This document shows, piece by piece, positions 14,961 to 49,900 of a DNA stretch of 64,000 nt. This DNA comes from Podospora anserina (lineage: Eukaryota): the NCBI GenBank assembly GCA_017654855.1, contig CM030332.1, forward strand, positions 7,502,001-7,566,000. Reading direction: 5' to 3'. Position numbers and translations under genes: made by a program. The number at the start of each line of letters is the position of its first letter. Position 1 is the stretch's first letter. The notes beneath the pieces are model-generated. The model was given only the letters and a program-made list of their open reading frames with translations, did not search any database and was not told where the DNA came from.

Positions 14961-14970
14961 AATTAAATAA

Positions 14971-17641: not shown

Positions 17642-17658
17642 TAGAGGTCGTGCCCGGG
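17642..17658 (+). promoter_or_regulatory. Family A PBS, probably complementary to the tRNA-Gln 3' end
   Basis: TAGAGGTCGTGCCCGGG (de-RIP TGGAGGTCGTGCCCGGG) 2 nt after the LTR; also at 51864-51880 (-). Confidence 0.7.
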
Positions 17659-25560: not shown

Positions 25561-28500
25561 AGTAAAGATTATTATATTAAATTTTTAATTTTTTCTTTTT
25601 TTTTTCTTATTATTTTTTTTTCCGATTTACTCCTCTCTTTATACCCCTTCCTCTAATTTAAGGAAGTAAAAGATTATTTTTTTTCTTTTTTTTTCTCCTT
25701 TTTTTTATTTATTTATTATTTTTTAAATTCTTTATATTTAGTCCGCTATTCTTCCTACTTTTAATCCTAATCGACTTTTTTATTATTAAAAATTAAATTT
25801 ATAGTATTATAATTTAACTTTAATAACCTACTATTATTAAAATCCTTAAAATAAAAGCTATTTTTATTAATATTAAATTATAAATAATAAATATTTTTAT
25901 ATTAATAATTTTTATATTTTTAATCGAAATCCTTTTTTTCTATATAACTAAAGTATAATTATATTACTTTAATTTTAATCTTATCGAAAAATATTACGAA
26001 AAACCGGTAATAACTTTAATTATATTTATTATATAAATTAATATAATTAAATCTAATATATTAATATTAAACTAAATCTAATTAGGGGGGCGATATTTAT
26101 AATAATTTAATAATTTAAATAAATAAGTTTTTAAAACGATAAACCTATTTAATAATTTCGAAAATTTAATACCCGAAAAATTATTTATTAAACCGTTTAA
26201 CGAAAATCCGTTTAACAAAACCGGTCGATAACGTTTTAAAAATATAATTAATAATAGTTTTATCTATACTAATATCCTTAAAAAGTAATTATTACTCTTT
26301 TTTACCCCCCTTCTTTATTAAATTAAGGAGGAACTATTTAAAGTAAAGGGAAGTAATTATATATTTAAGATTTAAAAAAAAAATTTTAAAATATTAAAAA
26401 ATAGTTTAATAGGGGAGAGAAATATTATAATAAATATTAATATTTTTAAATATAATAGAATTATAAATATAAATAAAATATTAAATTTAAATATATTTTT
26501 TATAAGTAATACTTTAATTATTAAGAATACGGGTAAAATTAATAGGATAATAAGTAAGGGTAGTAAGTAAAGGCTTTTAAATAAAGTTTATAGTAACTTT
26601 AAATTAATTATACGTAATAAAGTTAAAAACTTTTTTAATTTAATTAAAAAGTTTTTTAATAAAAAAGGTTATAAATATTTAAGTAGTAAGGTCGTTAATT
26701 GTTTAATCGAATAAAGTAATAAATTTCTTTAAAGAAAAGGTTATTAGGAAAAAATAATTAATAAATATTAAAAAAAATAAAAAGTAAACGGGAATAAAGA
26801 AAATTAGTATAGGTATTTATAATTAGAGGATAGGACGGTACGATTGGTCTTATAAACCTCTATAGGAGGGAGATTTATTAAAACGTTTTTTCCTTTTTAA
26901 ACGGTTTACGTAATTATTTAATAATTTTACTTTATAAACTAAGTAAATAATAGAGAATAAAGATTTACCGAAGACTTTTTTTTTTTTTTAACTTTTTATT
27001 TTAAAAAAAAAAAAAAATTCTTTACTTCCCTTTCGATAACCCTTTAATTATAGATTATACTATATATTATTCCCTCTTAATTTTTATAAAATAATATTAT
27101 TAATGTTTTTTATAAAGTTTATTTATAATATATTATAAAAAAAATTTACTGTTATTAAAAAATTCGGCCCTTTTAATAATCTCGTTAAAAAAATTATTCG
27201 AAAAACGCGCCTTTAAAATATTAATAAAATTTATAATTTTAATCCTCCGTATAATATTTTTTTTTTTTAAAATAATAATATTTTTTAGCTTATTCGTTTT
27301 AACTTTAATTTAATTACCGACCTAGAAAATTATATTATAGAAAAGCAGTTTAACTAAATTAATATTACTTTCGTAAAGTAATTTTCGATTAATATTATTA
27401 AATATTTTTTTTTTAATTTAAAAATAATAATCCTCCTTAATCGAATTTATATTTACGGTATTTATATAGTTTCCTTTATTTATATTATATATAACCTTTA
27501 AAGTTAATTAAAAATTAAATAATAATTTATTAACTCGGTCCTTACCTATATTTTTTAATATTTTTTTTAGGAAATCCTTAAGCGTTATATATAGATTTTT
27601 AAAAAGCCTTTAAACCCTATTATAATAAAGTTATCGATATATTTTTTTTTATTTAATAATAATTATAATACTTTTAACCGATAATATTAAGTCCTTTTTA
27701 TTTATATTAATAACGGAAATTATTAAGTAATAAATATTTATAACGTTACTATTAGTATTTTAATTTATATAGATTTGTTAAAAAATTAAAAAAAGTATTA
27801 AATTAATACTATTTTTTATTTAATATTTTATATTCGTTACGCTTTTTACTATAATTTTAATATAAAAATAAAAAAATTAATTTATAGTAAATAGGGCGGG
27901 GCGTAAGAATATAGTTTTTAGGTTTTAAAGTATTACTATATTTACTTTTAAAAAGGTATTTCGTATAGTAAAGAAAAGGATTTAACGGTAATAAAAATTT
28001 AAAAAAAAATCGTTACTATAGAGATTATAAAACTGTAGGTATTACGGGGAAAAAAATAATAAAGTTATAAATAATTTATATAAAAAGGTTTTTAAGTTAT
28101 AAACCTAATTAAAAAGTATATAATAAGAAATAAAGAAGGAAGGGCCTAAAGGATTTAATAAACGCGGAAGGATTTAATTTACTAAATACCCTCTCGTTTC
28201 CTTTTAAGTTTTTATTAATTTCCTAATTTACTTCCCTCTTTAATTTTTTATTAACTTTAATTATTACTATTAAAAAAAAAAAATATATTGTAAATTTTCC
28301 CTTTAATTATAAAAGGTTTAAATTAAATAATATATCGAATAACTTTTAACGATTAAATAAAATAATAACCCCTTTTAGGTTCTATACTCCTATAATAATA
28401 GACTCGCCGCTCCTCTCTAGGCCTATAATTACTTATCCCCTTACTTATAATTACTTAAAATCGTTAATAATATACTTTTCGTTTAATTATATATTTAGTT

Positions 28501-29152
28501 TTATAAGATAAAAGTAAGTTCCTAAAGTTCTTTAAAAATAAAGGGAGGAGGTCGTTAAGTTACTAATTATAATAGCTCGATAGGGATAAAAGTATACTTT
28601 AAGATCCGAAAAGTAAAGGTATTTTTCTTTTTAATTAAGGAAAAATAAATAAAAGAATAGTAAAATTATATTATTTTCCCTTTTTTTTACTAAATAATAT
28701 TTTTTTTTTTTTTAATTTATAAAAGATTTTTTTTTATATATATATTTACTTACTAATTTATAGTAATTAAATATAAAGGGAGGTTTAATTTAGGGTACGG
28801 CTATAGGCTTAAAAGTATAAATAAGGAAGCGGGGCTCTTAAAGGACTTAAGGGTTTAGGGGTTATATATATAAGCGGTCTACTTCGGACATTTTATTTTA
28901 AATAGGAAATCGACTTTTATTCTTTTCTTCGTATTTTATACCTTACACGCGTATAGGTAATTCTGGCCCTTTAATTAAGCTAATCCGGTGCTTATTATAT
29001 AGCCTGCGAGCCTATAGTGTTTTTTTTTTATCCTACTTAAAGTGCGGCCTGCGAGCGAGTTACTGTCACGCAGGTGTGTTTATTTTGAGACCTATTGAGG
29101 GTATATTTGTAGTGTTGTGGTTATTTTGTGTGTTTTCTCACCATTTTACTAC

Positions 29153-32100
29153 CAATAGTGGCACTAGGCTATTTCTATACAATTCAGGGCCCTTGGAATA
29201 CCTAAATTTCTGGAAAATCCTAATTCGGTAAACGCCCGGCTTTCCGACCTACAGAAGGCAGCCCTGCTATTAACCCTCAGAAATACACTAAAGGAAGGCC
29301 CGTTATCCACTATAGCCTTCGAAACCGACCCCGTTGTGGCCTATAAGCGCCTTCGCTCACAGTACGCTCCGGCGCAGCCTACCCTCCGAGACGAGCTATA
29401 TAAGGCCTACCACCACTTGCAGTTCGATAGGTCTATACCTATCGTGGATTTCAACGCCCAATTTAACACCTACGTAAGTAGGCTCGGGGCCTTAGGCGTT
29501 AAAATAGCCCAAATCGACCAACTAAACTACTATTTTAATGTACTGGAAAACCATTTTCCACAGTAGGCCGAGCGCTATAAAGGCCTACTTCGGCAGGAGC
29601 AATGGCTCTACCATACAGAAGGCAAGCCTACTAGGCTAAGCCTTTTGTATTTCCAGGAAGACCTTTTAGCCGAAACCCGTAATTCGGCTACTTCCACTGC
29701 CCACCAATTACAGGCCCTATAGGCTACCTACAAGCCTATTAGTAGCGAAAAGAAGCCTAACTTTTAGGCTTCTCAAGCTCACCGGTCCTCACCAAATAAG
29801 GACCAAAAGCCCTATAAAAAACAGGGCAATAAGCAGTGGAAGAAAGGCCTGAAAAAGGACGACCGCTATAACGACCGCTATAACAGCCGCAAAGACGGCC
29901 GTAAGGACAGTCGCAAAGACAACCGCAAGGACCAAAAGGACCTACCCGCTACCGAGGCTTTTACTATAAGCTACGACCTTAACTTAGGCACTATATTTAG
30001 AAGTAATATAACTAAAGAATATAGCGACCTAGGGCCTGATCCTCCCGAAGAACTGGCTAAATTTAGCTACTCAACCGCTACACCACGTACCCAGTGGCTC
30101 TTCGATATAGGCTCTACAATACATATCTGCAACAATAAAGCCTTATTTACCAACCTACAGTTCTCTTCTTCCCTGGGCTATATTAGTACAGGCGGTAGCC
30201 CAGTCAAGCCGCAAGGCAAAGGCACTATAAAAGTTGAATTCTTCAGTGGTTTTGAGGGCAAAAAAGCGGTATATACTACTGTAGCCCTTAAAGAGACCCT
30301 CTATATTCCAGACTTTCCACTGAATATAGTTAGTGGTCACAGGCTCTACGCCTCCGGTAGGACCCTTCTTAAGGACCGCCTATATTCGGCTTCTAGGAAG
30401 CTACTGGCCCTCCTTAACTTTAAGAAAAATAGGTTCTTTTTTACTACCAAAACCACGGTTCCAGCTAAAATAGAGCATTTAACGCTATAAGCATACGGCT
30501 CTATTTAGTGCTACAGCACTAAAGACAGCGATTCAGACCCTGAATCAACTACCATTACGCCTGAATTTCCAGCTACTACAGCGCTTACCACAGCGCTTAC
30601 CACAGTGCCTACCACAGCGCCTACCACAGCGCTTACCACAGCGCCTACCACAGCGCCTACCACAGTGCCTACCACAGCGCCTACCACAGCGCCTATCACA
30701 GCGCCTAAACCAATTACCACTACGGCGCCTACCCCTCGCCGTATAGGGCATTCGCCCTACCAATATAACCAAGCATTGATTCAGGCTACAAGACTCTAGC
30801 ACGTTCGATTAAGTTATATAGGCCTAAACCTTCTAAAGAAAACTGCCCTAATTACTAAGGGCATACCCAATTTACAGAAGGTACAGCCTACAGATCTAAC
30901 CTATAAAAGCTATGACGCAGCTAAATTACTGCGTAAACCTTCTAAAAGGCCTGTAACGGACCCACCGTATACGCTGAGTCGAATAGAAGGGGATATATTT
31001 ATGATTCGACCCACCCCACTGAACAGCAGGCCTTACGGGCTTATTTTAGTGGACCGTAAGACCCGGTACAGGCTTGTTAGGCTCCTAAAAACTAAGGACG
31101 AAGTCGCTATAGAGGCTCGCTCCGCTATAGAGAGCTTATATAATACTTATAAGCGGTACCCGGCACAATTCCACTACGACGGGGGCAAGGAAATTCGAAG
31201 GCTACTGCCCTACCTTACTAAAAAAAGTATAACCTTTAATGAGTCTAGCCCATACGCCCACCACTAAAACGGCCTAGCCGAGCGCTCTATTCGGGTAATT
31301 TTAGAGCGTCTACGAGCCACTATAGTAGCCTCTAGCCTACCACTTACCCTCTAGTACTACGTAATTAGCTCTATTATGGATATTATTAACCGTACAGCTA
31401 CTTCCACTAAGGAATTTACGCCCCACCAGTTATTTTTTAACGAATTAGTGCCTTTATAGGCCCCTCACGTTCCTAACCTCGGACCTTATAGGGCTATAGG
31501 CGCTGAAGTTCTAGTACTTACACCGCTTAAAAAACGTATTACTGTAAGGAAGTTAGAGCCTAAAGTTATTAAAAGTAAGCTTCTAGCCGTACTAGGCAAT
31601 AATACTTACTTAATGTAGCTAAGCTACCGGCAAGTAATCTAAACGCTATTCGTTAAACTATACGAAGATTATAAGCCTTATTTAAAAGGACCTATAGCCT
31701 CCACATCGCAACTAAAGCTTCTAGAACTGGAAGATATCGAGCTTTCAGAAGGGGAACCCCTATAATCACAGAAGGGGCACTTACTGCAACAGTACCTCCT
31801 AGGCCTATACTTATAGTAATAGCACCTCTAAAGCTTACTAATATCGAAGTACTACTTCCGCAGGCCACTAAGTTACAAAAGGAGGAATTCGAAGTAGTAG
31901 ATAACGATACTATAGATACCACTGCTCTAGTATATTATTTTATTAACCAGGCTGCTACGGCTGTTACCTACAGCACTGCTTCTATTAGCACAGAACCTAG
32001 GACCTTTAAACAGGCCCTAAAGCACCCACTAAAGGACCAGTAGCTACAGGCCTCCTTCAGTAAACTACAGCAGCTACTAAATTCCAAAACCTTCTACTTC

Positions 32101-32599
32101 ATCAACCGCTCTCAGGCTCCAAAAAGGCCTATTACTAGCCGATAGGTCTATAAAGCTAAAAAGGACTTACAGGGCTAAATTATTAAATTTAAAGCCCGGC
32201 TAGTAATTAGAGGCTTCTAACAGGTACCCGGAACCGATTTCACGGAGACCTTTGCAGCCACTACGGCACCACCTACCTAGCGGGTTTTACTAGCTATTAT
32301 AGCTAAAGAAGACCTAGAAATTAAGCAAATTAATTTCGTTAGGGCCTTTCTTAACGCTAGTGTAGACTCCGATATATATATAGAAGTCCCTAAAGGCCTA
32401 TACGAATATAGCCTTAGTAGCCAAACCGCTATAGACCTTCTGAAACAACATTGCTAGGACCCTTCGAAGGACCAAGTTATAGTACTAAAAAGGTCCCTAT
32501 ACGGCCTAACAAAGGCCTTACCAGCACCCAAGTTCCAGCGCTTTTTAGAGCTAATAAACTACCGGAAGCCTAGTACTTATAAAGGCCCTACGGCCTAGT
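29153..32599 (+). pseudogene. Copia B gag-pol (continuation after A insertion), RIP stops and internal RT/RNase H deletion
   Basis: QWLFD.GS..HICN protease ~30092; WHVRLGH ~30797; integrase YDGGKE / ESSPYAHHQNGLAER; RT FKARLV.RGF.Q; ORF-track 29336 and 31001 ORFs are fragments of it. Confidence 0.9.
30577..30732 (+). repeat. 12-bp coding minisatellite (ACCACAGCGCCT; TTAP units) in Copia B pol
   Basis: About 11 tandem units between protease and pre-integrase. Confidence 0.93.
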
Positions 32600-32630
32600 A
32601 AGTGGGCACCTAGCACTCCCATAGAAGGGG

Positions 32631-33249
32631 TGTTAATGTGTGGGTATTACTAAGTGCCCTACTTACTGCCCTACAGATTAATATTACAGTGGGCAGTACT
32701 ACTATAAACAGTAATGGAACTTCCCGGCTTGGATCCCTTTAAAATATTCTTTACAAGGGACCCTTAAAGGCTTACAGGGCTACTGTGGCCTGAGGCTTAG
32801 TTAATGGATACTAAAACCTTCCAAAGTAGCTACAGGCTTACGTAGTAAGTTACCACAATAGTGTGATTTACAGGGCACCTCTGCTGCCGAAGGTTCTATA
32901 GATTTCCGTGAGTCTACACTAGACCCACCTAAGCCCACCAAATACCCCAAAGTGGTATAGGGGCTTCCAGGGCCTACAGGACCCACAGTAGGCTTACGAA
33001 GGCCTATATATAAACCTCTCCTCTCTCCTGTAAAATAGTTTTCTTTCTTTCCTCAAGGGCAAAAGCTTAAGGCTAAGGCCAAGGGTAATAAAGGTAATTC
33101 TTATTCTTTATACCTCACTGTATTACAGTGCTTTACCTTCCTTCGGCACTGCCGTCGTATCCTCCCGCTTCCGCTTGCGCACTGCTATATTTTACAGCAA
33201 CCCTATATAGGTTCTATATTATAGGCCTATCAGGGCTTACCAGCTAACA
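32631..33249 (+). repeat. Copia B 3' LTR (619 bp)
   Basis: TG...CA, preceded by PPT. Confidence 0.95.
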
Positions 33250-35186
33250 ATATTAATAACGGAAATTATTAAATAATAAATATTTATAATAATATTATTA
33301 ATATTTTAATTTATATAAATTTATCGAAAGATTAAAAAAAATATTAAATTAATGTTATTTTTTATTTAGTATTTTATATTCGTTATACTTTTTACTATAA
33401 CTTTAACGTAAAAGTAAGGAAATTAGTTTACGGTAAATAAAGTAAAGTATAGGAATATAGTTTTTAAGTTTTAAAGTATTACCGTATTTATTTTTAGAAA
33501 GGTATTTTGTATAGTAAAAAGAAGGATTTAACGGTAATAAAAGTTTAAAAAGGAGATTATTATTATAAAGATTATAAGACTATAAGCGTTATAAAGAAAA
33601 AAATAATAAAATTATAAATAATTTATATAAAAAAGTTTTTAAATTATAAATTTAATTAGAGGGTACGTAATAAAAAATAAAAGAGGAAGGGCCTAAAGGA
33701 CTTAATAAACGCGGAAGGATTTAATTTATTAAATACCCTCTCGTTTCCTTTTAAATCTCTACTAATTCCCCGGTTTACTTTCTTCCTTAATTTTTTATTA
33801 ACTTTAATTATTATTATTAAAAAAAAATATATATTATAAGTTTTTCTTTTAATTATAAAGGATTTAAATTAAATAATATATCGAATAATTTTTAATAATT
33901 AAATAAAGTAATAACCCCCTTTAAATTCTATATTTCTATAATAATAAACTCCCCGCTCCTCTTTAGGCTTATAATTACCCGTTTTCCTATTTATAATTAC
34001 TTAAAATTATTAATAATATACTTTTTATTTAATTATATACCTAGTTTTATAAAATAAGAGTAAGCTCCTAAAGTATAACGAACCCCTATATAGAACCTCT
34101 GAAAGGGATACAGGTTAAAGGTAACTTCTAATAATTAGTTCGGTGTAGCTAAACAGTGCACAACAAGATATCTCGATGTAAACACAAGATGCCGTGAATA
34201 TAAGCTTAAATTACATACTGCGGAACTATCTATCTACACCAGCCAGTTCCTCCGTATATATAGACCTTGGGGCCGTGAGGTGCTCGCCCTGCTATAGCCC
34301 CGATCACTCCTAGCACATTGCATCCTGCATTGTGCTCGTCGTGCTATACCTCTGATCACTCCTAGCACATTGCATCTGCATTGTGCTCGTCGTGCTATGC
34401 CTCTAATCATCCCTAGCATCTTGCATCCTGCAGACTGCTCGTGAGCCTTGGCGCCATAGCACTTTTGCCTAGCCCTGATCGGCTTGTTCCCTGACTTCCT
34501 GAATGATTGGCTAGGGGCGACCTGCGCCCCACATGTGGCGCGACCTGCCGTTGGGTTAACTGTGACATAAAGTTCCTTAAAAATAAAAGGAAAAGGTCGT
34601 TAAGTTACCGGTTATAATAATTCGATAGGGACAAAAATATACTTTAAAATCCGAAAAGTAAAGGTACTCTTCTCCCTAATTAAGGGAGAATAGATAAAAG
34701 GATAATAGGATTATATTATTTTCTTTTTTTTTATTAAATAATTTTTTTTTTTTTAATTTATAAAGGATTTTTTTTTTATATATATATTTATTTATTAATT
34801 TATAGTAGTTAAATGTAAAAGGAGGTTTAGTTTAGGGTGCGGCTACTTCTCTAAAAATATAAGTAAGGAAGCGGGGCTCTCAAAAGACTTAGGGGTTTAA
34901 GGGTTATATATATAAGCGGTCTACTTCGGACATTCTATTTTAGAGAAATCATCCACTTTTATTTCTTTATATTTTGTGCTCTGCACGCGTGCAGGCAATC
35001 CTGGCCTTCTGATTAGGCTAACCCGGTGCTTATTATATAGCCTGCGAGCCTATAGTATCTTTTATCTGTCCTAAGTAAAGTGCGGCCTGCAAGCGAGTTA
35101 CTGTTACGCAGGCGTGTCCATTTAGGGACCTGTTGAGAGTATATTTGTGGTGTTGTAGTTAGTTTATGTGTTTTCTTACCATTTTA
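33250..35186 (+). mobile_element. Family A host copy, 3' part with variant 3' LTR (34828-35186), interrupted by solo LTR F
   Basis: Matches copy 2 from ~27704 onward; LTR ends ACCATTTTA at 35186. Confidence 0.9.
34074..34567 (-). mobile_element. Solo LTR F (D-family R-U5, distinct U3 with ~52-bp tandem repeats)
   Basis: Perfect 5-bp TSD TAAAG on both sides; left ~190 bp match D/E R-U5. Confidence 0.93.
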
Positions 35187-35447: not shown

Positions 35448-35854
35448 TGTGACGAACCCCTATATAGAACCTCTAAAAGGGATACGGGTTAAAGGTAACT
35501 TCTAATAATTAGTTCGGTTCAGCTAAATAGTGCATAACAAGATATCTCGATATAAATATAAAATGCCGTAAATATAAATTTAAATTGCATATTGCGGAAC
35601 TATTTATCTATACTAGCCAGTTCCTCCGTATATATAGTTTTTATACTAAGCCGTAATTAGTCTCCTAAGGCTATTAATTACCTCGGTTTAGTTTGCTTAG
35701 TGCCTTAATTATACTAATTACCTTTGCTTAGTCTACTTAGTACTCTAATTACACTAATTACTTTGCTTTTACTATAATTAACTTCCCTATACGTTCTCCC
35801 GATTAGCCCTTTATTCCCGTAGCCCTATAACCGTCCTATACTAAGGTTATAATA
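35448..35854 (-). repeat. Gypsy E 3' LTR (407 bp)
   Basis: Matches 58990-59356 plus one extra ~40-bp unit. Confidence 0.92.
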
Positions 35855-35957
35855 CGATATTCCCCCTCTTAGGTTAACGCCCCGATAACTTAGCTCGCTT
35901 ATCTCTCCTATCGATAACCTTAAGTAAATTTTCCTCCCTTATTACTATCCTTCTATA

Positions 35958-36554
35958 ATATTTAACCGCGTTAAGAAATTTACGCCGAAAGGTCCCTCGA
36001 GTACCCTTCGCCGTTAGAATTTTATAGCTATTACCTTTATTTTCGGTAACGAAATACTTCCCTATTCTTCTTACGAGGCCCTTAATATCTCCGATTACCG
36101 CACTTCTAAACGCTCCTCTAAATATAATTACTATATATATTCCGGTCGCTCCGACTGCGATATCCTAGGCCTTACTCTTGCGTTAATAGCCTCCTTACGT
36201 CGCTAAAAAGAAAAACTAAACGCCGACGAATAATAGGCTCGTACGGCTATACTATAGGCTACTTCGAAACTCTTGTAAGTAAATACCTAACGCCGTACTT
36301 TAATTATTAAATTCCGTCGTTTAGCCGCTTACAAGGAGCGGGTAATTAAGGATTTAAAGCGGGAAAAAGTATAGGTTTCTTTCGCCGCTAATCTTCCTTT
36401 AACCTTTTCCCTTAACTAAACTTCCGATATACTAGACTAGCTTAGTTAGTCCTTACCGGATAACTTATCTCTTAATCCTAGCGTAGCCGGTTTTTCCTTC
36501 TTTACTACTTAAAATACCGTTAATAATACGCCTTCCCCTTTTTAAAATAATTAA
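35958..36554 (+). pseudogene. Antisense accessory gene of E: six-Cys Zn-cluster-like domain, coiled coil, acidic tail; end approximate
   Basis: De-RIP MSNRVKK...EMLPCSSCEALNISDCRTSKRSSKCNYCVHSGRSDCD (last Cys still TGC at 36156), then LRRQKEKLDADEQQAR. Confidence 0.7.
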
Positions 36555-36899
36555 AGTATATAATATTATTTATATTTAATTCCCTTTATACTTTTTAATT
36601 TTATAGTATAATATATAATATATCGATTATTATATTAAAAACGTAAATTCGATTTTTATTAAAGTTCTCGAATCTCTATATTATTATTATTTAACGGTAA
36701 TCTAAGGACTTATTTTTTTTATTTAAGTTTTAGTCGGTTTAAATATCATTAATAAAAAAATTTTTATTTATTTAAATAAATAAAATTTGTTTTTAATTTT
36801 TATAAATTATTTATAATTAAATATTTTAATTAATTAATTAAATATTTTAATTATTTTTTATTAAACTATAAATTTAATATTTCTTTTATATTATATTTT

Positions 36900-37534
36900 T
36901 ATTAATGTGTGGGTACTACTAAGTGCCCTACTTACTGCCCTACAGATTGATATTACAGTGGGCAGTACTGCTATAAGCAGTAATGGAACTTCCCGGCTTA
37001 GATCCCTTTAGAATGTTCTTTACAAGGGACCCTTAAAGGCTTACAGGGCTACTGTGGCTTGAGGCTTAGTTAATGGATATTAGAACTTTCCAAAGTGGCT
37101 ACAGGCTTACGTAGTAAGTTACCACAATAGTGTGATTTACAGGGCACCTCTGCTGCCGAAGGTTCTATGGATTTCCGTAAGTCTACACTAGACCCACCTA
37201 AGCCCACCAAATACCCCAAAGTGGTATAGGGGCTTCTAGGGCCTACAGGACCCACAGTAGGCCTACGAAGGCCTATATATAGACCTCTCCTCTCTCCTAT
37301 AGAATAGTTCCTTTCTTTCTTTCCTTAAGGGCAAAAGCTTAAGGCTAAGGCCAAAGGCCAAGGCCAAGGGTAATAAAGGCAATTCTTATTCCTTATACCT
37401 CACTGTATTACAGTGCTTTACCTTCCTTCGGCACTGCCGTCGTATCCTCCAGCTTCCGCTTGCGCACTGCTGTATTTTACAGCAACCCTGTATAGGTTCT
37501 ATATTATAGGCCTATCAGGGCTTACCAGCTAACA
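36900..37534 (+). mobile_element. Copia B solo LTR inside E, no TSD
   Basis: Full LTR-B; flanks ATTTT / ATATT; adjacent E integrase sequence missing. Confidence 0.92.
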
Positions 37535-40500
37535 ATATTATTATATTTAATGCTAATTACTATATTTTTTAATTTTAATAATTTAATAATAAAGTTTATT
37601 ATAATTAAATTTCATAATTATTTTACTATTAATAATAACTTTAGAAATTTATAAAGTTTATATTTCGTAACCTTTATTTTTTTATACGTATAGTATAACT
37701 AAATAGCTTCCTTAATATTATTTTTAATTTTTAATTAATTAAAATATTATTTAATTTTTTCTATAGTTTTAACGATATTTATATACCCTCCGAACTTTAA
37801 CCTATAGATCTCTATTACTAATACCGTCCTATTATTTAATATTATATACGTTCGATTTTTATACTATAGTCTTCCCTAATTATTTTTTTAAATACTTTAT
37901 AGCTTTAGCTTTTCCTATTAATATTATTTTATAATATTATTATTTAATTTCCTTTAATATTTATTAAAAATAGTTTTCTCGTAATATATTATATAATACA
38001 TTATTTACGGCTATAATAGATATTTAAGGGTATTATCTAGTGCCTTCTCGAGTAATAGTAGTAATTCCCTAGGTATATCCTTATAATAGTCGGCTCGCCG
38101 GTTAAGTACGTTTACCTTAACGTTCTCCGAACCCTTCTTATAATTAATTTAAAAATTAAATTTTAAAAGAAATTTTAATTATTATATTTATTATACGTTA
38201 AGGACCTTTATAATAATAAAATATTATAGATTTTTATAATTTATATAGATTTATATTTCGTAATTAATATTATTAAAGTATAACCTTTATTCCTTAAATA
38301 TTTCGATAATAGTGAGTAGCTTTTTATTATAAATTAAGTAATTTTAACGTATTTCTTTTAATTTCTTTAAAAAGAAAACTATTAAATATAACTTCCCGTT
38401 ATTATTTTACTATTTTAATTACCTATTAATCGTATAGTTTAATATATTAGCTTTAACTTCGAACGGTCGATTAAAGTTTAATAATTTAAATACTAAATCC
38501 TTTAAAATAACCTTTTTTAGTTCCTAAAAAACCTACTCTTTTTCCTACCTTTACCGGAACTCCACGTCTTTCTTAATTAAATAATTAAATAATTATACGA
38601 TTCCTATATACTTATAAATAAATATTTAATAAAAATTTAGAAATTTTAAAAATTCTTTAATATATATTTATAATTATAATATAAACTAATCTTTAATTAT
38701 TATAATCTTTTTAAATTCTATACGAACTTTATTTAATAATATTAAATATTTTAAATATATTATTTTTTATATATAAAGCTTATTTTTTTTATTAATTAAA
38801 AATCTAATTCCGTATAACGCGTTAAGTATCTTTTATATATATCGCTTATATTCCTTTAAAATATATAAATAAATAAAAACATTATTAAAATAATATATTA
38901 TTATTTTATCGAGGTACTTCCGGATTATATAATTAACGAGAGATTAAAACGTTACGGGCGTATTAATTAATTTAAATAGTATTATAAGATACTTAAAATA
39001 ATTATAGGATATACGAAACGTTATTTTTTATTTATTTCCTTTTTTAATCCGTATATAGGTATACCCAATAAATATATTTAAATATATAAAGTATCGCGCT
39101 TTAATTAATTAACTCCGTAATTTAAATATTAATAATAATAAATAATTATGTTTTACCGTTTTATTATTTAATTAACGGTAGTCTATATATAATTATAAAT
39201 TACTATTTTTTTTTAATACGAAGAATATAAAGTATTTTATTAGTAATATAAACTTTTTAATATATCCTTTCTTTAAATTCTTATTTAAGTATTTCCGTAA
39301 TTCTTTATTTTACTTATCATTAATATAATAAACCTTAAATAACCGTAATTTAACTCCTTTTTTTAATTTAATTTTATAGTTTTATAGTCTTTACTTTAAA
39401 AACCCCTCTAAATATTTAGCCGTAAAGGCTAGGTATCCTCGATATTCCACCGGTACTATTTTTTTTTACTTTTCTTTATATTATTATAATAAACGTACTT
39501 ATTAATTTCCGATATCTTTATTAATATTATTAACTTTATTTCTTTAATCTTACCACCTATATCAATAAAATATACTATTATTTTTTAAGTTCTTTACGGT
39601 AGTACCGTGGAGGGTACTTGTCCTACACTCTACTCTATATATACTTTTAATTTCTTATCGTTAATTAAATATTTTTAAAGTTTTTTTTAGTCGTAAATAA
39701 TTATTATCCCTCTAATCGATATTTAAATTATAATTTTTATACTATAATTACTTTAGGATTATATCCTTCGAAAGTCCTATATTTATAATATTAAATATAA
39801 TTAAAATTATTTTTCTTTTAACTATAATATTTAAAAGTGTTAAAATACAGCACTTATTTGTGGATTTTACAGTATGTTCTTTCTCGTGGCTTACAGCACT
39901 CAAAGGCTTCAAGCCACAGCGCCTATAACGCCCATAGCGGTTATAAGGAACTATAAAGTTTTTATATAAATTATTGTGGCTAACTGAACCGGTAGAAGTT
40001 ATGGGGATTAATAAGGAGGAAAAAGAGGTTTTGGATGCCTATAAAAGGCTCCCCTCCTAGTGTATTTGGAATAATCCTTTTCTTTCTTAAGTTTAAGTCA
40101 AACAGTTAAAATCAATATACTGGTTTACTATACTTTTGTAGGGCATAGTTCCCTATATTTACCTTCCTTCGGTACTACCTTATACTATCGTACCTCGCAA
40201 TCCAAAAACCCTAGAGTCTTTAGGTAATTGCTTCCGACTTACCTAGAAGGCATATAATTAGCTTACCGATAATATATTTTAATAAATTATAAGCCCGGAC
40301 TTATATTTAAATTCTAGCGAGTTCCTTTATTCTACGTTCCTATAGCGGTTTCTTACCGTAAGCCCTGTTTTTATTAAAATGGTAAGAAAACACACAAAAC
40401 AACCACAACACCACAAATATACCCTTAACAGGTCTCAGAATAAACATACCTACGTGACAGTGACTCGCTCGCAGGCCGCACTTTACGTAGGACAAAGAAA

Positions 40501-40823
40501 AGACACTATGGGCTCGCAGGCCACATAATAAGCACCGGATTGGCCTGATTAGAGGGCCAGAATTGCCTGCACGCGTGCAAGGCACAAAATACAAAGAAAA
40601 GAATAAAAGTCGATGTCCTCTCTAAATAGAATGTCCGAAGCAGACCGCTTATATATATAACCCCTGAACCCCTAAGTCCTCTAAGAGCCCCGCTTCCTTA
40701 CTTATACTCTTAAGCCTATAACCGTACCCTAAACCAAACCTCCCTTCGCATTTAACCACTATAAATTAATAGGCAAATATATATATAAGAAAAAAATCTT
40801 TTATAAATAAAAAAAAAAAAAAA

Positions 40824-42458
40824 ATATCGTTTAGTAAAAAAAAGGGAAAACGATATAATCCTACTATCCCTTTATTTATTCTCCTTTAATTAAAGAGAAA
40901 AATACTTTTACTTTTCGGATTTTAAAATATACTTCTGTCCTTATCGAGTTATTATAATTAGTAACCTAACGACCTCCTCCCTTTATTTTTAAAGAACTTT
41001 AAGAGCCTACTCTTATTCTATAAAACTAAGTATATAATTAGGCGAAAAGTATATTATTAGCGATTTTAAGTGGTTATAAGTAGGGGGACGAGTAATTATA
41101 GGCCTAAAAAGGAGCAGCGAGTTTATTATTATAGGAGTATAGAACTTAAAGAGGGTTACTACCTTATTTAATCGTTAAAAGTTATTCGATACGCTACTTA
41201 GTTTAAACCCTTTATAATTAAAGGGAAGACCTACGACGTATTTATTTCCTTTAATAGTAATAATTAAAGTTAATAGAGAACTAGGGAGGGAAGTAAACCG
41301 AGGAATTAATAGAAATTTAAAAGGAAATAAAAAGGTGTTTAGTAGGTTAAATCCTTTCGCGTTTATTAAATCCTTTAGGCCCCTCCTCCTTTATTTTTTA
41401 TTATATACCCTCTAATTAAGCTTATAACCTAAAAACCTTTTTATATAAGCTATCTATAACTTTATTATTTTCTTTCCCGTAACGCTTACGGTCTTATAGT
41501 CTCTATAGTAATAATCTTCTCTCTAAGCCTTTACTACCGTTAAATCCTCCTTTTTACTATACGAAATACCTCTCTAAAAGTAAGTACGGTAATACTTTAA
41601 AACCTAAAAACTATATTCCTACGCCCCGCCCTATTTACTATAGGCTAGCCTCCTTACTTTTACGTTAAAACTATAATAAAAAGCGTAACGGATATAAAAT
41701 ACTAAATAAAAAATAGTATTAGCTTAATACCCCTTCCAATCCTTTAACGAATCTATATAAACCAAAATACTAATAATAACGTCGTAAATACTTATTACCT
41801 AATAGCTTCCGTTATTAATATAAATAAGGAGGACTTAATATTATCGGTTAAAAGTATTATAATTATTATTAAGTAAAAAAAAGCGTATCGATAACTTTAT
41901 TATAATAGGGTTTAGAGGCTTTTTAGGGATCTATATATAACGCTCGAGGATTTCTTAAAGAAAATACCGAAAAATATAAGTAAGGACCGAACTAATAAAT
42001 TACTACTTAGCCTCTAATTAACCTTAAAGGTTATATATAACGTAAGTAAAAAAAGTTATATAAATATTATAAATATAAATCCGATTAAAGGGGGTTATTA
42101 TTTTTAAATTAAAAAAAAAATATTTAATAATATTAATCGAAAACTATTTTATAAAAATAATATTAATTTAGTCGAGCCGCCTTCCTATAATATAATCTCC
42201 TAGGTCGGTAATTAAGTTAAGGTTAAAACGAATAAACTAAAGAGTATTATCGCTTTAAAAAAAGAAAATACCGCGCGGGGGACTAAAACTATAGACCTTA
42301 TCGATACTTTAAAGGTGTATTTTCCGAATAATCTCTTTAACGAGATTATTAGGAGGGCCGAATTTCTTAATAGTAGTAAATTCTTTCTATAATATATTAT
42401 AAATGGACTTTATAAAAAGCGTTAATAATATTATTTTATAAGAATTAAGAGGGAGTAA
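40824..42458 (+). pseudogene. Putative antisense ORF X1 of family A (~540 codons, unknown product)
   Basis: One frame reads protein-like throughout after RIP reversal (e.g. KTVDLIDTLKARFPNDLFNEIVGRAEFLD); stops are TAA/TAG only, which RIP makes weakly informative. Confidence 0.45.
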
Positions 42459-42774
42459 TATATAATGTAATCTGTGATTAAAGGATTATCGAAAGGGAAA
42501 TAAAGAATTTTTTTTTAGAATAGAGAGTTAAAGAGGGAAAAAGATTTTTGGTAAATCTTTATTCTTTATTATCTACTTAACTTATAAAATAAGATTATTA
42601 AATAGTTACGTAAGCCGTTTAAGGAGGAAAGAGCGCTTTAATAAGTTTCCCTCCTATAGAAGTCTATAGGACTAGTCGCACCGTTCTATCCTTTAATTAT
42701 AAATACCTATATTAATTTTCTTTATTTTTATTTACTCTTTATTTTTTTTAATATTTATTAATCGCTTCCTCTTA

Positions 42775-43806
42775 ATAGCCTCTTTTTTAAAAAAACCTAC
42801 TACTTTATTTAATTAAACGGTCAACGACTTTATTATTTAAGTATTTACAACCTTTTTCGTTAAAAAACTTCTTAGTTAGGTCGAGGGAGTTCTTAACTTT
42901 ATTACGTACGATTAGTCCGAAGTCGTTATAAACTTTACTTAAAAACCTTTATTTACTACCCTTACTTATTATCCTACCGACCTTACCTATATTCCTAATA
43001 ATTAAAGTATTACTTATAAAAGGTACGTCTAGGTTCGGCGTCCTACTTACGTTTATAACTTTATTATACCTAAAGGTATTAATATTTATTACGATATTTC
43101 TTTTCCCTATTAAGTTACTCTTTAATACTTTAAAATTTCCCCTTTAAATCTTAAATACGTAGCTACTCCCCTTTACTTTAAATAGTTCTTCCTTAATTTA
43201 ACGAAAAAGGGGGGTAAAAAAGAGTAGTAATTATTTTTTAAGGATATTAGTGCGGATAAAACTATTATTAATTATATCTTTAAAGTATTATTAACCGGTT
43301 CCGTTAAACGGATTTTCGTTAAACGGTTTAATAAGTAATTTTTCGGGCGCTAGCTCTTTAAAATCGTTAAACAGGTTTATTACTTTAAAAGTTTATTTAT
43401 TTAGGCTACTAGATTATTATAAGTACCGCCCCCCTAATTAAATTTAATTTAATATTAATATATTAGATTTAGTTATATTAATTTATATAATAAATACGAT
43501 TAAAACTATCGCTAATTTTTCGTAACGTTTCCCGATAGGACTAAAACTAAGGTAATATAGTTATATTTCGGTTATATAGGAAGAGAGGACCTCGATTAGA
43601 AATACGGGAATTACTAGTATAAGGATATTTATTACTTATAGTCTAGTGTTAATAAGGATAGCCCTTACTTTAAGGATCTTAATAGTAGTAGATTATCGAA
43701 GTTAAATCGTAGTACCGTAAGCTTAATTCCTAATAATAAGGAAGTCGATTAGGATTAAAAGTAGGAAGAATAGCGGGCTAAGTATAAAGAGTTTAAAAAA
43801 TAGTAA
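42775..43806 (+). pseudogene. Putative antisense ORF X2 of family A (~340 codons, unknown product)
   Basis: Single frame from (M)ASF.EEP to ..EVDWDWKWEEWRAKYEEF; flanked by low-complexity spacers. Confidence 0.5.
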
Positions 43807-43959
43807 ATAAATAAAAAAAAGGAGAAAAAAAAAGAAAAAAAATAGTTTTTTATTTTTTTAAATTAGAGGAAGGGGTATAAAGAGAGGAGTAAATTAGAAA
43901 AAAAAATAATAGGAAAAGAAAAAAAAAAAATTAAAAATTTAATATAATAATCTTTACTT

Positions 43960-46900
43960 TAATTAATTACCTCCCTTAATATCTTTCCTCCCTTTAAGAA
44001 TAGATAATTCTTATAGCTCTATTTTTATAATATAAACTTTAGTACCCTTTTAAAGAAAAATAATAATTATAATACTTTTATTATCGTTTCCCCCTAATTA
44101 CCTAAGAAGTCCTTTAGTTTACCTTTTTTTAGGATTACCTTTATACTTTTGCCCTTCTTAAATTTCTTTTATACTTTAATATTCTTCCGTTCTATTTAAG
44201 TCTTCCCCCTAATTATTATTCTCCCTAGTATTTCTTTTACTATCTCTTTTTCTTTATCCTTATTTTCTACTATATCTATACCTTCCTTTACTCCATTCCT
44301 AAATACCTATTTAACTCTCTTTAGTCTTAGCTACATATCCGTATCCTCTTTATTTATATATACGTTTTTTAACCTAAAAAATTTTTTTACTTTATTTAAC
44401 ATATAAGAAGCTCGTAATAGTACCCTATCCAGTATCTTTAGGAAATAATAAATATTACTTAGTTCGACCTTCTTTACTTTAAAAGGGCCGTCCTAATAGT
44501 ACTATAGTTTCCTTACTACACTTATATCTAACTTTCTATCTATTTTATATACTAATACTAAGTCCCCCCTTTTAATTATATTATTTTTAGGCCTAATATT
44601 ATAAATCCCTTTTCTGTTTTTTTTTATTACGGCTTTTTATTTTACTATACTAACCTTCTTAGCCACTAAAGTTAGATTTATTTTTTAGGATTTTAATAGT
44701 CTCGCCCTTACCTTTATTAAATTTATAATCGCTCTTTTTTTTTAATATCTCCTTAATTTATCAAAACTAATTTTTTCTTATTAAACGACTCTCTATAACG
44801 GTACGTCCTTTTCGATTAGCGTAATAAGGTTAAATTTATATATTAAATAAAAAATATTATATTTATAAATACTTTATATTATAGTCCTATTAATAAATAA
44901 TATATAAGGGAGCTATTACTTTTACTTTTTCCCCGTCCTATCCGTTATTTTTATTAGTATTAATATAATTAGGATATAACTAAATTCCGTTACTCTATTT
45001 ACTTTTACGTTATAAAGTAAAACTACTATCCGAAAAACTCCTAGCTTCTTTAAAATTTTAATAACTTCCTTCCTAAATTTTAATCCGCTATTTACTATTA
45101 CGATTAAAGGGTAACCCTATTTAAGGATAATATTATATAAAATAAAGTTTTTAACCCTAAAAACTTTATTTAAATTTAAAACTTTCGTTTTTAAATATTT
45201 AATTAAATTATCCCTTACTTTTAAAAAGTAAATTTTTTTTTCCGAAGTTATTAGTAAAAACTAAACGTTTAAATATTATTTTATAAATAAAGTAACTAAA
45301 AGCTTAATATATAAATATTAATCCTTTTAACGCTTCGGGCTCTATTATTAATATTATTTATATATTTTAATCTAAACCTCGATATTAGCGTATATACCCT
45401 TCTAATAATAGTTTTTTATTATTCGGGTATAAGTAGCTTCCCGTCCTTTATAACCTATCTCGTTATAATATATATTAAAGACTTTTTCCCGTTTAATTAG
45501 AGGATTAATAATTTTTTTAGGGGGAAAGCTTTCTTTATTTAGTTTAAGAAATAAAATTCTATTTTCGAGAATTATTTTTAGAGTATTATTCTTAATGGTC
45601 TGAACGTTAAACTTCGTTTTAGCCTTTAGTTCCGTACTAGTCGCGAGGAACTCGGTAATAATATAAGAGTAAGGAGACTATAGTTTATTTAAATAGGGGC
45701 TTTACTTAATAACTTTCTTTTTTTTTTTTTTAATATTTACCCGCTAAATACTTATTTCTTAAATATCGTTTTTCTAGATCTTTACGTTAACCTTATTATT
45801 AATATCTAGCTCTAACTCCTTTTCCCTTAAATTAAAGGGGTTAAGTGGTTTTCTCGATAGTACATTTACTATAAGGTTCTTACTTTTAAAAATATAAATA
45901 ATTATAAAGTTAAAAAATCTAATCTATCCTAACTATCTTATTATTAAAGCGCCGGGAACGTTACTAGCCGCCCTTTAGACTTAATAGATTACCACTTAAA
46001 CGTCCGTTTCCACCGTAAAATATACCCCGAAAAGATACTTTCTAAATCTCTTTAAAGTATATAATAGTCCTCTTAACTCCCTCTTAATAGTATTATACTT
46101 TTATTTAGCCGGGCTTTAAATACTACTCTTAAACCGATAAGGGTACCGTTTTTTATTAGGTTTTACTTATTTAATTACCGTTCCTTACCCCGTTAAATTT
46201 ATATTAAAAATAATAAAGATTTTACCGAAACGATCGTTATTAAATATTAAAGAAGTTAAATATAGTACCTTTATAATTAAAAAAGTAAATTACTCTATTA
46301 TACTTTATTAAGCTTCCGTCTATTCTTATTTCGTATCCTTCCTTATTAAAAAATATAGCGGAACTGCAATTAAATTAAAGAGAGGTACCTATAGCCGATA
46401 GTAGCCGGTAATCCCTAAAAAAGTATAAATATCCTTAAAACTATAGTAAGTTCGCTATTCCTTTATCTTTACTATCTTTATTTAATTAAGGAAGCGCCCG
46501 TCCGGTATATAGGAATAGCTAAGGATAATAGCTTCCCGTTTATACTAAAGGGATTTTACGGCTATAATTATAATTCCTATAAGCTTACAGTTAAATAAAA
46601 CTACATTAATATTCTTTAAATACTTTAGGACTTACTTTTTAATTCCTAACCTTTCTTTTTTACTATTATAATCCTACCTTAGCCCTTTTACTATAATATC
46701 GTTTAGGTATAGCCGATATACTTATAGGATAAGATTTTAAAAAACTTTAGTTACGGCTCTTTAGAATTAGGCCACTAAGTTAGTAGCTCCTTAAGGTAGG
46801 GTATATATCCTAAATAGGCCGATAAATATCGCGAAGGTAGTAAGGTCTCGGTTCGTTAGGGCTAATTTAATTTAGTTATATCTAGAAAAGAAATTAAGTA

Positions 46901-49900
46901 AAAAGGTAATAAGGTACCCTATAAAGTCTTCGCTAAACTCCTTAATACTTAGTAGGATAAAGGTATTTCGTTATATAATTTTATTATATCTTTAGGTATT
47001 ATTAATTAAACGGAGGCTACTATTCTTTTTCTTTATTAAAAATTAATTATTACGGTAAGGATTATACGTTTCCTTAATAATATTTTTTTTAATTCGTTCC
47101 TTAAAAAAATCGATAACTTTCTTTATAAGTAGCTTCGGGATCGGAATAAATTTACTTTATTATACTTTATAAAGAATAGTTTTAATATATTAAATAAGGA
47201 AAACTTTTTTAAGGATCTATCTATACTCGGTAAAGTCTTATACTAATATAACCTCCCTTATAAATAAAATTACCGTAAATACTTTAACCTCTTAATCTAT
47301 TAAAATATCGGTAATTTATTTAATTAAATCGACTAAACGTTTTAGAGTAAAGCGTAACCCTTTAATTATTTTAGAAAACTTAGGGACTATAATATCGTTG
47401 AATTCTAAGTTATATTATAGGGATTCCTTAATTATTACCTATCTCTTTACTTTTTAGTTCGAATTTCTTTTAGGAATATTATTATTTAACCTAATATTAT
47501 TAACCGGCTTTACCTTTTTATTTACCCTCTTATATATTATAATAATAATAATAATATTTATAGGCGTTAGTTAGGCCTATTTAAAAGTAATAATTAAACT
47601 AGTTTTTATATTATTTTTTTTTTTAGAAGGGGGCGGAGGTAAATAATATTTATATAATTATATAGTAAAGAGGCTACGCTAACTTAGTTAAGTAAGAGAC
47701 TAATTAAATATCCTTAAATATAAAGATACTATATCGGGCTTAAATAGGGTTATCTTGCTAGTCCTTTAATTAAACGGTGGCGATGTTTTTAGTAGTGGTA
47801 GCGACGGTATTAAATATAAACCTATTATAAAGGTCGGTAGTAACGGTCGTTCTTTCTTTAAAATTTTATCCGAAGTTAGAGTTTTTATTATAATTTCCAC
47901 TCTTTTAGGTTAAAATAAAGACTTTTCTTTTTGGTAGTCCCTTATACTTTCCTTTTTTCCTTCCTTTTAATTATTAATATTCTTTTTTCCTTTACTCTTA
48001 ATATCCCCCTTTTCTTTATTTTTATAAAAAATAATATTAAACGTTAAATAATAATTTAATAATAATAAATTTAATTCCTTTAAAATAAAATTAAGTAAAA
48101 AACGTTTAGTTCCTTTATTTAATTCCTTAATTACTTTATTCCCTTCCTTTAGCTTTTCCGTTATTTACTTAGGGATAGGTATTCCTTTATTAATTAATCC
48201 CTTAAATACCTATAAAAGTTAATTAATAAAAAAAGTATTACCTCGATCTTTACTATTATATTCCGCCTTTATTTTATTAATTACCTCCTTTTTTACTATA
48301 TAGGTTTTAATTAACTTTCCTTTATATAATATATTTATATTAATTATATAGCTCTTTATAAAATTAAAAATAAGGCTTATATCCGTAAAGAACGGGATGC
48401 TTAATAGTAGGTTATAGAAATCTAGAGCCTTAATATTATTAATAATAAAAAAATAATATAAAATTAGAACCTTAATTAATATTATTAGAGCCTAAATCTT
48501 ACCTATAAATATAACCGGATTTCTATAAAGGCTTTTAAACTATAAGTTCGTCGATATTATCGGTAAATAAAACCTTTTAACTATAGCCTTACTAATTAGG
48601 TTATACTCCGAGCCTATATCTAATATTATTAATACCTTCTTTAAAGTTAGTAAAACGAAGTTATAATATAGCGATAAAACGTTATAGGTTCGAGTAACGG
48701 CTCCCAAAAGAATTTACTTACTACCGGAAAGCCGGCTAATAGGCGTAAATAATAGAGTCCGCAATCACTCTTTTAAATTATTACCCGGTTAGACCTTACC
48801 TTTAATAATCTTCTCTTAAATACCTCCCTCGACCATACTATACTTACTATCCGCCGTAATCCCGTATAAAGTAGGGACAGTTTTCCTTTAATTAAACGAA
48901 GGAGTTTTACTATATTTAGCCGTCTAAAAATTCGTTTAAACCGTTAATAGTAAGGCCTCCCCCTTTTATAAAACTTTTTTTTTTTTATCCGGGGTATTTT
49001 TAGAAGATTTACGCTACTCGATTATTTTAATATCCTCGGCTATATTCTTTACGTAATCTATTAACCGGTAAATAAATATAAGTAAAACCCTATAATACTT
49101 TTCTAATATAAACTTAGTTTAATTATAAATATACTTTTTAGTTTTCTCGGTAATATAATTTTTAAAGTCCTTTACTTTACTATTAAGTAACCTTAAGCTA
49201 CTCCGGACTTTATCCCTTTAATCGGACAAAACTTTTTCTTTAATTACCTTTAGTTTTTCTTACGCGGAGGTAAATACTACTTTTAGATTTTCGGCTAAAG
49301 TTAGGTTATTTATATCCTTTTTCGGTAAATCCTCGATCCTTACTCTTTTCGTTCTTTACGCGCCTACCCCTACTTCCACCTTTTAATTATAAACAATTAT
49401 TAAAGTATTATTAAAATACTTTAAAATACTTTTAGGTAATTACTTTTTTATTAAATAACATTATAAAGTATTTTTAATAATATAGTTACTAACTAAATTC
49501 TCGTTAAACGGTACGTAGGATTTAGAATACCTATAAAGCTTATTTAACCTAATATTTATAACCCTAGCTATCTAAGTAACTATCTATTCCTTTCCTTTAA
49601 TTAAAGAAATTTCGGGCCTATATCCTTTACCCTTACGAATTTCTTAATATTTAATTTATTTTATATAAGTTTTATAAGCCCTATTTAGTTTTAGTTTTAA
49701 CGAAATTATAGTACGAACTAGGTCACTAACTTTCCTTTTACGCTATACTTTTTTTATATCCTCTTAATTAAACTACGCTTTTTTACTTTCCGGCTATTCC
49801 TTCTTACCGATATACACTCTACCTCCTTTAATATAGTATAGTCCCCACGCCTTATTATATTTTTTCTTCGGATATTCCGTCGACTTAATATAATAATTAA

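Follow-up and report, generated by a model that had tools for sequence, protein, structure and literature searches.

A RIP-inactivated antisense gene of a Podospora anserina Gypsy element and the family of putative zinc-cluster proteins to which it belongs

Results

A dead accessory gene in Gypsy E

The stretch of Podospora anserina DNA analysed here (64,000 nucleotides, positions 7,502,001 to 7,566,000 of contig CM030332.1 in assembly GCA_017654855.1; hereafter the window) carries two degraded retrotransposons, Gypsy D and Gypsy E, each with an extra gene that runs antisense to the element between the end of pol and the 3' long terminal repeat (LTR). The gene of Gypsy E, at 35958-36554, is almost certainly a pseudogene of a Gypsy-borne antisense accessory family, inactivated by repeat-induced point mutation (RIP). 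The best explanation overall, which we regard as reasonably probable, is that the interval holds a RIP-dead zinc-cluster accessory gene whose intact relatives would regulate the element that carries them.

The frame opens at 35958 with ATA in place of ATG, continues as F-N-R-V-K-K, contains 13 internal stops and closes with TAA at 36552-36554. A minus-strand reading of the same interval yielded no sensible frame and was rejected; the open reading frame lies on the plus strand. A first-pass annotation, made by a model from the sequence alone, had described an intronless antisense six-Cys gene in this interval, with an RVKK start, a Cys spacing of x2-x7-x8-x2-x7 in which one TGC is intact, and a coil followed by an acidic tail containing D-W. 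The codons at the six positions agree with this description: they read TAT (36063), TAC (36072), TAC (36096), TAT (36123), TAT (36132) and TGC (36156), followed by GAT (Asp). Each of the five Tyr codons is derivable from a Cys codon by a G>A change, and the six-Cys-Asp motif is present as a former state only.

When the frame was searched with X at its stop codons (93 candidate proteins sharing words with the query were scored), one database protein alone was matched, a 211-residue hypothetical protein from Triangularia verruculosa (P0001; E-value 2.7e-53, 61% identity, 87% coverage). P0001 starts with MSNRVKK and has a Cys at all six predicted places, in the arrangement C-SS-C-x7-C-x8-C-NH-C-x7-C-D. 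A single frame of Gypsy E is colinear with residues 1-176 of P0001, so that the gene is indeed intronless. The coil and the D-W tail are likewise recognizable in the intact protein, in which a helix modelled at residues 74-138 is followed by a tail with 'LDW' and 'GW'; in Gypsy E these read N-stop and D-stop, W154 and W161 of P0001 being aligned to TAA and TAG, respectively.

The differences between the two sequences bear the mark of RIP. Of the 200 positions that can be aligned, the two sequences agree at 112; C>T or G>A changes alone account for 60 of the differences, and the remaining 28, which fall mostly in the last 35 residues, are of other kinds. The explained differences include the ATG to ATA change at the start, the five Cys to Tyr replacements and 10 of the 11 stops within the first 165 residues; at 10 of these 11 stops P0001 has Gln, Trp or Arg. 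The RIP indices of the interval are 1.91 for TpA/ApT and 0.09 for (CpA+TpG)/(ApC+GpT).

One could argue that RIP, which leaves many Tyr codons, produced the six-position pattern by chance and that the interval is a non-coding spacer. Tyr and Cys codons do account for 8.3% of all six-frame codons in the window, and a relaxed pattern allowing Cys or Tyr at each of the six positions was matched 13 times in 20 triplet-shuffled windows. In the six frames of the window itself this pattern occurs twice, at Gypsy E and at the matching place of Gypsy D, and nowhere else. A profile built from 60 family sequences, run against all six frames, scored the Gypsy E interval at E 1.5e-17 over 35964-36377. Together with the match to P0001 and the audit of the 200 aligned positions, this refutes the chance explanation, to which we assign a negligible probability.

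Positions 35940-36577 are present in three DNA sequencing runs from three studies, with 0 to 4 differing letters per contig piece; the Gypsy E copy is thus not an assembly artefact but real DNA in several isolates. In the three runs, 35987-36525 is found at single-contig depth (approximately 29-155), while the R-U5 end of the LTR reaches 14,000-59,000. The gene in its Gypsy E version thus seems to have just one copy in that organism, at a likeness of 90%. A further run, guessed to be RNA, covers 35448-35484 only and gives nothing on expression. The copies in Gypsy E and Gypsy D are both dead, and within the window they are relics without function.

A protein family of ascomycete chromoviruses

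The family to which P0001 belongs was collected by an exhaustive HMMER search with P0001 over cluster representatives at 50% identity. It comprises at least 230 representatives at E ≤ 1e-3, 28 at E ≤ 1e-10 and two at E ≤ 1e-30, in Ascomycota, most of them 150-220 residues long. Named members come from Podospora, Triangularia, Parathielavia, Pyricularia, Gaeumannomyces, Cytospora, Apiospora, Verticillium, Ilyonectria, Pseudogymnoascus and Pyrenophora; to judge by these organism names the range extends over Sordariomycetes, Leotiomycetes (Pseudogymnoascus) and Dothideomycetes. Several of the genes are multi-copy within a single species.

In an alignment of 60 members the start reads MSxRVxK, RLRxQ is conserved within a long heptad-rich segment, and the tail contains DW and is rich in Gly/Ser at its end. 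C36, C39 and C47 are invariant, and C56, C59, C67 and D68 are at least 90% conserved. The six-Cys pattern was present in 268 of the 294 family proteins collected, most commonly with loops of 6/8/6 residues (n=87); the 7/8/7 spacing of Gypsy E recurs in 14 family proteins and the 8/8/6 spacing of Gypsy D in four. On average, the 35 residues preceding the cluster carry a charge of +2.9 and the tails a net charge of -7.9, and 141 of 252 tails contain an acidic or Phe residue followed by Trp.

To place the family gene in its carriers, metagenome contigs were searched with a 10-sequence alignment as the query. Three family loci were returned (L001-L003); the same search in viral contigs returned none. 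On its minus strand, L001 carries a complete chromovirus, whose 486-bp LTRs (3202-3687 and 11273-11758) are 100% identical and which has a 5-bp target duplication (CCTGC) and a polypurine tract. Its gag (8790-11201) contains Retrotrans_gag and a zinc knuckle, and its pol (4900-8910, minus strand) contains protease, reverse transcriptase (RT), RNase H, integrase, SH3 and chromo domains. The plus strand bears the family gene (3761-4318), with 74 nt between it and the 3' LTR and 578 nt between it and the pol stop. L002 and L003 likewise have the gene facing the chromodomain end of a pol, tail to tail, so that the layout is found in all three outside loci. The first-pass annotation had placed the Gypsy E gene in the same position and orientation as that of Gypsy D; the Gypsy D copy was indeed found antisense between pol and the 3' LTR, and the antisense layout is common to the five loci inspected (D, E and L001-L003). 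The family is an accessory gene of ascomycete Ty3/Gypsy chromoviruses, located antisense between the end of pol and the 3' LTR.

Two features of these loci are noted in passing. The L001 LTRs contain many copies of TGCTCAGTG/CACTGAGCA, and their U3 has a direct repeat, CCGAGGA-N5-CCGAGGA; these are candidate factor sites and were not used as evidence. In L002, Helitron_like_N and PIF1 helicase domains (approximately 2700-4871, minus strand) lie upstream of a truncated Gypsy pol, and a Helitron therefore appears to have inserted into the Gypsy element.

Purifying selection on the family is supported by the sequence comparison of L001 with L002, the one pair used, in which the last 81 codons gave a synonymous divergence (dS) of 0.99, a nonsynonymous divergence (dN) of 0.11 and a dN/dS of 0.11. 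Purifying selection in homologues had been proposed as a check by the first-pass annotation, which inferred a functional protein under selection. For the family this holds, as the near-invariant Cys residues and the dN/dS indicate; for the dead copies in the window it does not.

The predicted protein

The fungal Zn2Cys6 cluster follows the classical spacing C-x2-C-x6-C-x5-12-C-x2-C-x6-8-C. The commonest spacing of the family (6/8/6, 87 of 268) fits this pattern, while the 7/8/7 of the E type and the 8/8/6 of the D type fall outside it in the first loop. Pfam searches with the raw Gypsy E and Gypsy D readings and with P0001 gave weak coiled-coil noise only. Across the 60 aligned members, Zn_clus was matched by 23 at E ≤ 1, with a best value of 0.001, the next model being a coiled-coil (10 members). 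Three members (P0002, P0191 and P0203) are labelled 'Zn(2)-C6 fungal-type domain-containing protein' by one source. In a profile search of PDB sequences the top match was PUT3 (1ajy; E 0.047), with all six Cys residues aligned.

Similar indications came from structure models. AlphaFold models of P0001 and P0072 (predicted local distance difference test, pLDDT, 81.8 and 91.6, respectively) share a pre-cluster helix, two short helices each starting at a C-x2-C pair, a long helix and a disordered tail; in P0001 the long helix has a pLDDT above 90. A Foldseek search with the 105-residue P0072 gave DNA-binding domains in 18 of the 22 matches listed (Gal4, Put3, Pho7, Hap1, Lac9, Leu3, Ppr1 and AlcR), all with E ≥ 0.33. 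We consider it likely, on the basis of sequence patterns and models, that the cluster has the zinc-cluster fold.

A two-chain model of P0001 residues 28-142 scored 0.60, as compared to 0.08 for the best of three controls. In a calibration of this score, the mark was reached by 21 of 30 solved same-chain pairs and by none of 23 single chains; among eukaryotic proteins it was reached by 17 of 29 pairs, by only one of the seven that had no older solved relative, and by none of 30 single chains. The run used no alignment and, unlike the calibration, included zinc. Contacts agreed between runs at 87% or more, and the partner pLDDT was 83 or higher. We accordingly describe the protein as combining a predicted, divergent cluster of the Zn2Cys6 kind, a presumed dimerisation helix and an acidic tail; it resembles the Gal4 class without being a certified member.

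Gypsy D and Gypsy E as mosaics

The accessory gene of Gypsy D belongs to another subfamily. In the six-frame profile scan its two frames gave the second and third best scores in the window (E 0.0043 and 0.14) and were colinear with the profile; the remaining match at E ≤ 10 (E 1.3) was noise. The second frame matches the family members P0205 (7.3e-10) and P0062 (9.4e-09), which are the nearest relatives of the D gene as P0001 is that of the E gene. The first-pass annotation had asked for profile similarity between the two, and the subfamilies proved to be related: the E-type and D-type profiles align with an hhalign probability of 100%, and the intact proxies P0001 and P0062 are 33% identical (E 5e-11). 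The frame change in the D gene is due to either an intron or an indel. On the minus strand at 15283-15373 there are 25 extra bases relative to P0062, between a post-cluster Cys-Asp in frame 0 and Gly-Thr-Tyr-Val in frame 1. Were a candidate intron of 40 nt, GTAAAT...TATAG, to be spliced out, the sixth Cys would be lost and a loop of five residues would remain, a length seen in none of 268 members.

The D and E genes were said by the first-pass annotation to show little nucleotide similarity although gag/pol can be aligned, and the lack of similarity was borne out. The intervals between the pol end and the LTR gave a best transition-tolerant local score of 36.5, against 33.7 ± 4.4 in shuffles, whereas pol aligns at 68% identity. 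Over 112 codons placed by the profile, 22 residues are common to the two genes, and their divergence is 0.417 transversions per site, compared with 0.089 in pol (2304 nt) and 0.088 at the pol end (131 of 181 positions identical, 16 transversions). Transition differences are similar in gene and pol (0.25 and 0.22), RIP inflating transitions everywhere. Within the LTR, R-U5 aligns well (154 of 184 identical, 8 transversions; score 270 vs 24.9 ± 4.1 for shuffles), whereas U3 is unalignable (27 vs 25.4 ± 3.6). Gypsy D and Gypsy E are thus mosaics, in which the accessory gene together with U3 acts as a single variable or exchangeable unit, in contrast to the alignable pol and R-U5 (approximately 0.04-0.09 transversions per site).

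The contrast between D and E had been read as a sign of fast evolution, and at the level of this pair the difference in transversions agrees with that view. It does not extend to the two outside copies, in which the gene is 82% identical and the pol C-terminus 86% (134 of 156), a result that argues against a generally much faster clock for the gene. One possible explanation is that the accessory gene and U3 were swapped as a block from one Gypsy lineage to another, perhaps through template switching as the element was reverse-transcribed, rather than having changed rapidly in place. Because U3 is part of the unalignable block, recombinational exchange accounts for the contrast no less well than fast evolution. 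The sharp boundaries between alignable and unalignable segments are in line with an exchange, as are the similar conservation of gene and pol in the outside pair and the position of the D and E genes in different subfamilies, each with its own relatives elsewhere. On the other hand, only two elements were compared, both of them RIP-degraded, no donor lineage was identified among the sequences compared, and U3 and accessory genes are generally the fastest-changing parts of retroelements. For the D/E contrast, we give exchange a chance close to even.

Sequence context

The window is an AT-rich nest of repeats with a RIP signature (TpA/ApT 1.44, (CpA+TpG)/(ApC+GpT) 0.34), as compared to 0.58 and 1.29 in its unique flank at 61000-64000. 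The features of the two Gypsy elements are collected in Table 1. In Gypsy D, RT, RNase H, an integrase zinc-finger and SH3 domains were detected.

Table 1. Features of Gypsy E and Gypsy D in the window
Feature	Position	Strand	Remarks
RIP-inactivated accessory gene of Gypsy E	35958-36554	+	Antisense to E, between pol and 3' LTR; 198 codons plus stop
Former six-Cys cluster, putatively Zn2Cys6-like	36063-36158	+	Now Y-x2-Y-x7-Y-x8-Y-x2-Y-x7-C
Coiled-coil segment	36177-36371	+	Equivalent of P0001 helix 74-138
Acidic tail	36372-36554	+	Former Trp codons now stops; approximately 10 residues shorter than the P0001 tail
Gypsy E		-	RNase H domains in a minus frame
Gypsy E pol (RT, RNase H, integrase part)	37522-39838	-	RIP-degraded; 68% identical to D 11642-13989; RT_RNaseH_2 6.8e-11
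Gypsy E pol end, C-terminal part	36719-36901	-	Convergent with accessory gene; aligns with D 14781-14970
LTR-like unit, 640 bp	36902-37543		Interrupts E pol, foreign to E; 93% identical to 32633-33258
Gypsy E 3' LTR	35448-35854	-	R-U5 approximately 35448-35637, U3 approximately 35638-35854; matches 58987-59365; end shared with D LTR GGGGTTCGTCACA
Gypsy E polypurine tract	35857-35873	-	Purine-rich on the element's strand; read by comparison with the D tract just before the D 3' LTR
Gypsy D	8729-16128	+	LTRs 8729-9147 and 15710-16128
Gypsy D accessory gene, other subfamily	14903-15568	-	ATG at 15568; six-position cluster 15377-15472; +1 frame change after cluster; RIP-degraded

The 640-bp LTR-like unit has three copies in the window: one inside Gypsy E pol, one at the end of a Copia-like element (32633-33258) and one split into 8494-8729 and 16133-16539. 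The split copy surrounds Gypsy D, which thus appears to have inserted into such a unit. The Copia-like element (29000-33250) has a GC content of 0.43-0.47 and is far less AT-rich than its neighbours, with TpA/ApT still raised at 2.24 and frames split into several open reading frames. An inverted duplicate of 11.9 kb (17279-29151 and 40372-52242; 83.6% identity, mostly GC 0.15-0.18) contains 6.6-kb repeats that are found again at 1230-7786.

Discussion

Role of the accessory protein

The intact family protein would bind two zinc ions, dimerise via its long helix and bind DNA. The start of the gene is 74-142 nt away from the edge of U3 in the 3' LTR, and the gene is directed into the element; its promoter would therefore have to be within or next to U3, with transcription proceeding inward from that side and divergently from the element's own promoter. 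The product would then act on the element's own U3, with the acidic tail serving as an activation domain, and gene and U3 would form one regulatory cassette whose parts diverge or are exchanged together. A zinc-cluster dimer with an acidic tail, encoded beside U3 and co-varying with it, would most simply be a regulator of the element's transcription. We put this forward tentatively, the features of sequence and model suggesting such a role with a probability somewhat short of even. A more specific proposal appears rather unlikely: that the Gypsy chromoviruses of ascomycetes themselves supply a dimeric transcription factor of the Gal4 kind, made from an antisense message beginning on the U3 side of the 3' LTR and recognising repeats in their own U3, and that the matched gene-U3 cassette co-evolves and is swapped between lineages.

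Several observations weigh against the overall explanation, that of a zinc-cluster accessory gene whose product would regulate its element. The dN/dS estimate comes from one pair and 81 codons, with dS near 1 and hence near saturation. P0001 has no Zn_clus match even at E ≤ 10, and across the family Zn_clus stays below the Pfam gathering score. The first loop has seven residues in the E subfamily, versus six in the classical pattern, and is inconsistently basic (mean 1.9 Lys/Arg), so that contact with DNA in the manner of Gal4 is not assured. The modelled dimer is antiparallel, with its centre near residue 99 and residue 87 contacting residues 108-115 of the other chain, which places the zinc clusters far apart at opposite ends, unlike those of Gal4-type dimers. 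The loop without consistent basic residues, the subthreshold Zn_clus scores and a dimer unlike the known Zn2Cys6 dimers would suit a protein that does not bind DNA at all, its zinc module and helix serving protein-protein contacts at some step of the element's life cycle, such as import into the nucleus, assembly of the particle or tethering of the integration complex. The only recurrent fold and sequence neighbours, however, are DNA-binding zinc clusters, the basic pre-cluster region and acidic tail are activator-like, and variation in the gene goes together with variation in U3, which is the promoter half of the LTR. A role confined to protein contacts strikes us as improbable.

An additional scenario is that the gene acts as a brake and not as an activator, either as an antisense-encoded regulator of copy number or silencing or as a decoy for a host zinc-cluster factor, while its antisense RNA may dampen the sense RNA. 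The gene converges on pol, so that its transcript would overlap the sense RNA only if read past its own stop codon. HBZ of human T-cell leukaemia virus type 1 (HTLV-1), an antisense product, mainly counteracts activation of the 5' LTR, and the present results would suit an effect in either direction. Yet the tails are strongly acidic, and the acidic/Phe-Trp motif that more than half of them carry resembles activation domains; the low dN/dS, moreover, indicates that the protein matters, beyond the RNA alone. We hold a brake to be quite improbable.

Implications

The antisense extra gene described here belongs to a large family under purifying selection, spread across several classes of filamentous ascomycetes, whose protein bears the hallmarks of a regulator with a zinc cluster, a coiled coil and an acidic tail. 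Should the protein prove to be a regulator, these elements would bring along their own transcription factor, with consequences for the ways in which they evade or adjust host control and for the origin of some small fungal zinc-cluster proteins. Self-regulation of this kind would provide a fungal counterpart of the retroviral HBZ or Tas, and a source of zinc-cluster factors for domestication by the host. For annotation, members of the family are now dispersed among 'hypothetical proteins' and ought to be treated as transposon genes and masked; degraded copies can be retrieved when RIP-affected DNA is read with Tyr standing for a former Cys.

Relation to known systems

An extra gene in this type of position has been known since 2011, and the description at the level of a family appears to be new. 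No account of a zinc-cluster gene carried by a fungal Gypsy element came up in the literature searched; the review 'LTR Retrotransposons in Fungi' (PMC3248453) mentions neither 'antisense' nor 'zinc', and a search on the locus tags MGG_18021 and MGG_15916 returned one unrelated paper only.

The closest known case, likened by position and orientation alone, is brtn of the Boty-like elements of Botrytis and Sclerotinia, an additional gene that, in a fungal Gypsy with a chromodomain, runs antisense between pol and the 3' LTR, according to the passages on it in PMC7264820 and PMC4227169. It is also described in PMC8365987 and PMC5987419, the original report being that of 2011 (Virology 417:248); as described in these citing texts, BRTN is given no domain and no function and has a narrow host range. 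E, D and L001-L003 share its antisense place in a chromodomain Gypsy. Among the named family matches (8000 word-sharing candidates were scored per search) there was no BRTN-named protein and none from Botrytis or Sclerotinia. Antisense open reading frames between pol and the 3' LTR also occur in plant elements (Grande, RIRE2, Retand and PvRetro13), where they are conserved within families and of unknown function (PMC7264820). They are alike in place and orientation and differ in kingdom, and the passages of PMC7264820 that concern them mention no zinc-cluster domain.

At the protein level, the likeness is to the Zn(II)2Cys6 factors Gal4, Put3, Ppr1, Hap1 and Leu3 (PF00172). The family has the six Cys residues, its commonest spacing (2/6/8/2/6) lies within the classical pattern, and cluster, linker, dimerising helix and acidic region would follow in the same order, with a helix starting at each C-x2-C in the models. 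It differs in that the protein is small (approximately 200 residues), lacks the fungal_trans middle domain, has a very long helix (approximately 65 residues) modelled as antiparallel, and is encoded by a retrotransposon and not by a host gene.

Among antisense regulators, HBZ of HTLV-1 is a dimerising basic leucine zipper (bZIP) factor transcribed from the 3' LTR. If the regulatory role proposed here holds, the family protein would be its analogue, each being a dimeric regulator of its own element's promoter encoded by an antisense gene on the side of the 3' LTR. The parallel is one of analogy only, between a bZIP protein of a vertebrate retrovirus and a putative zinc-cluster protein of fungal chromoviruses that share no homology.

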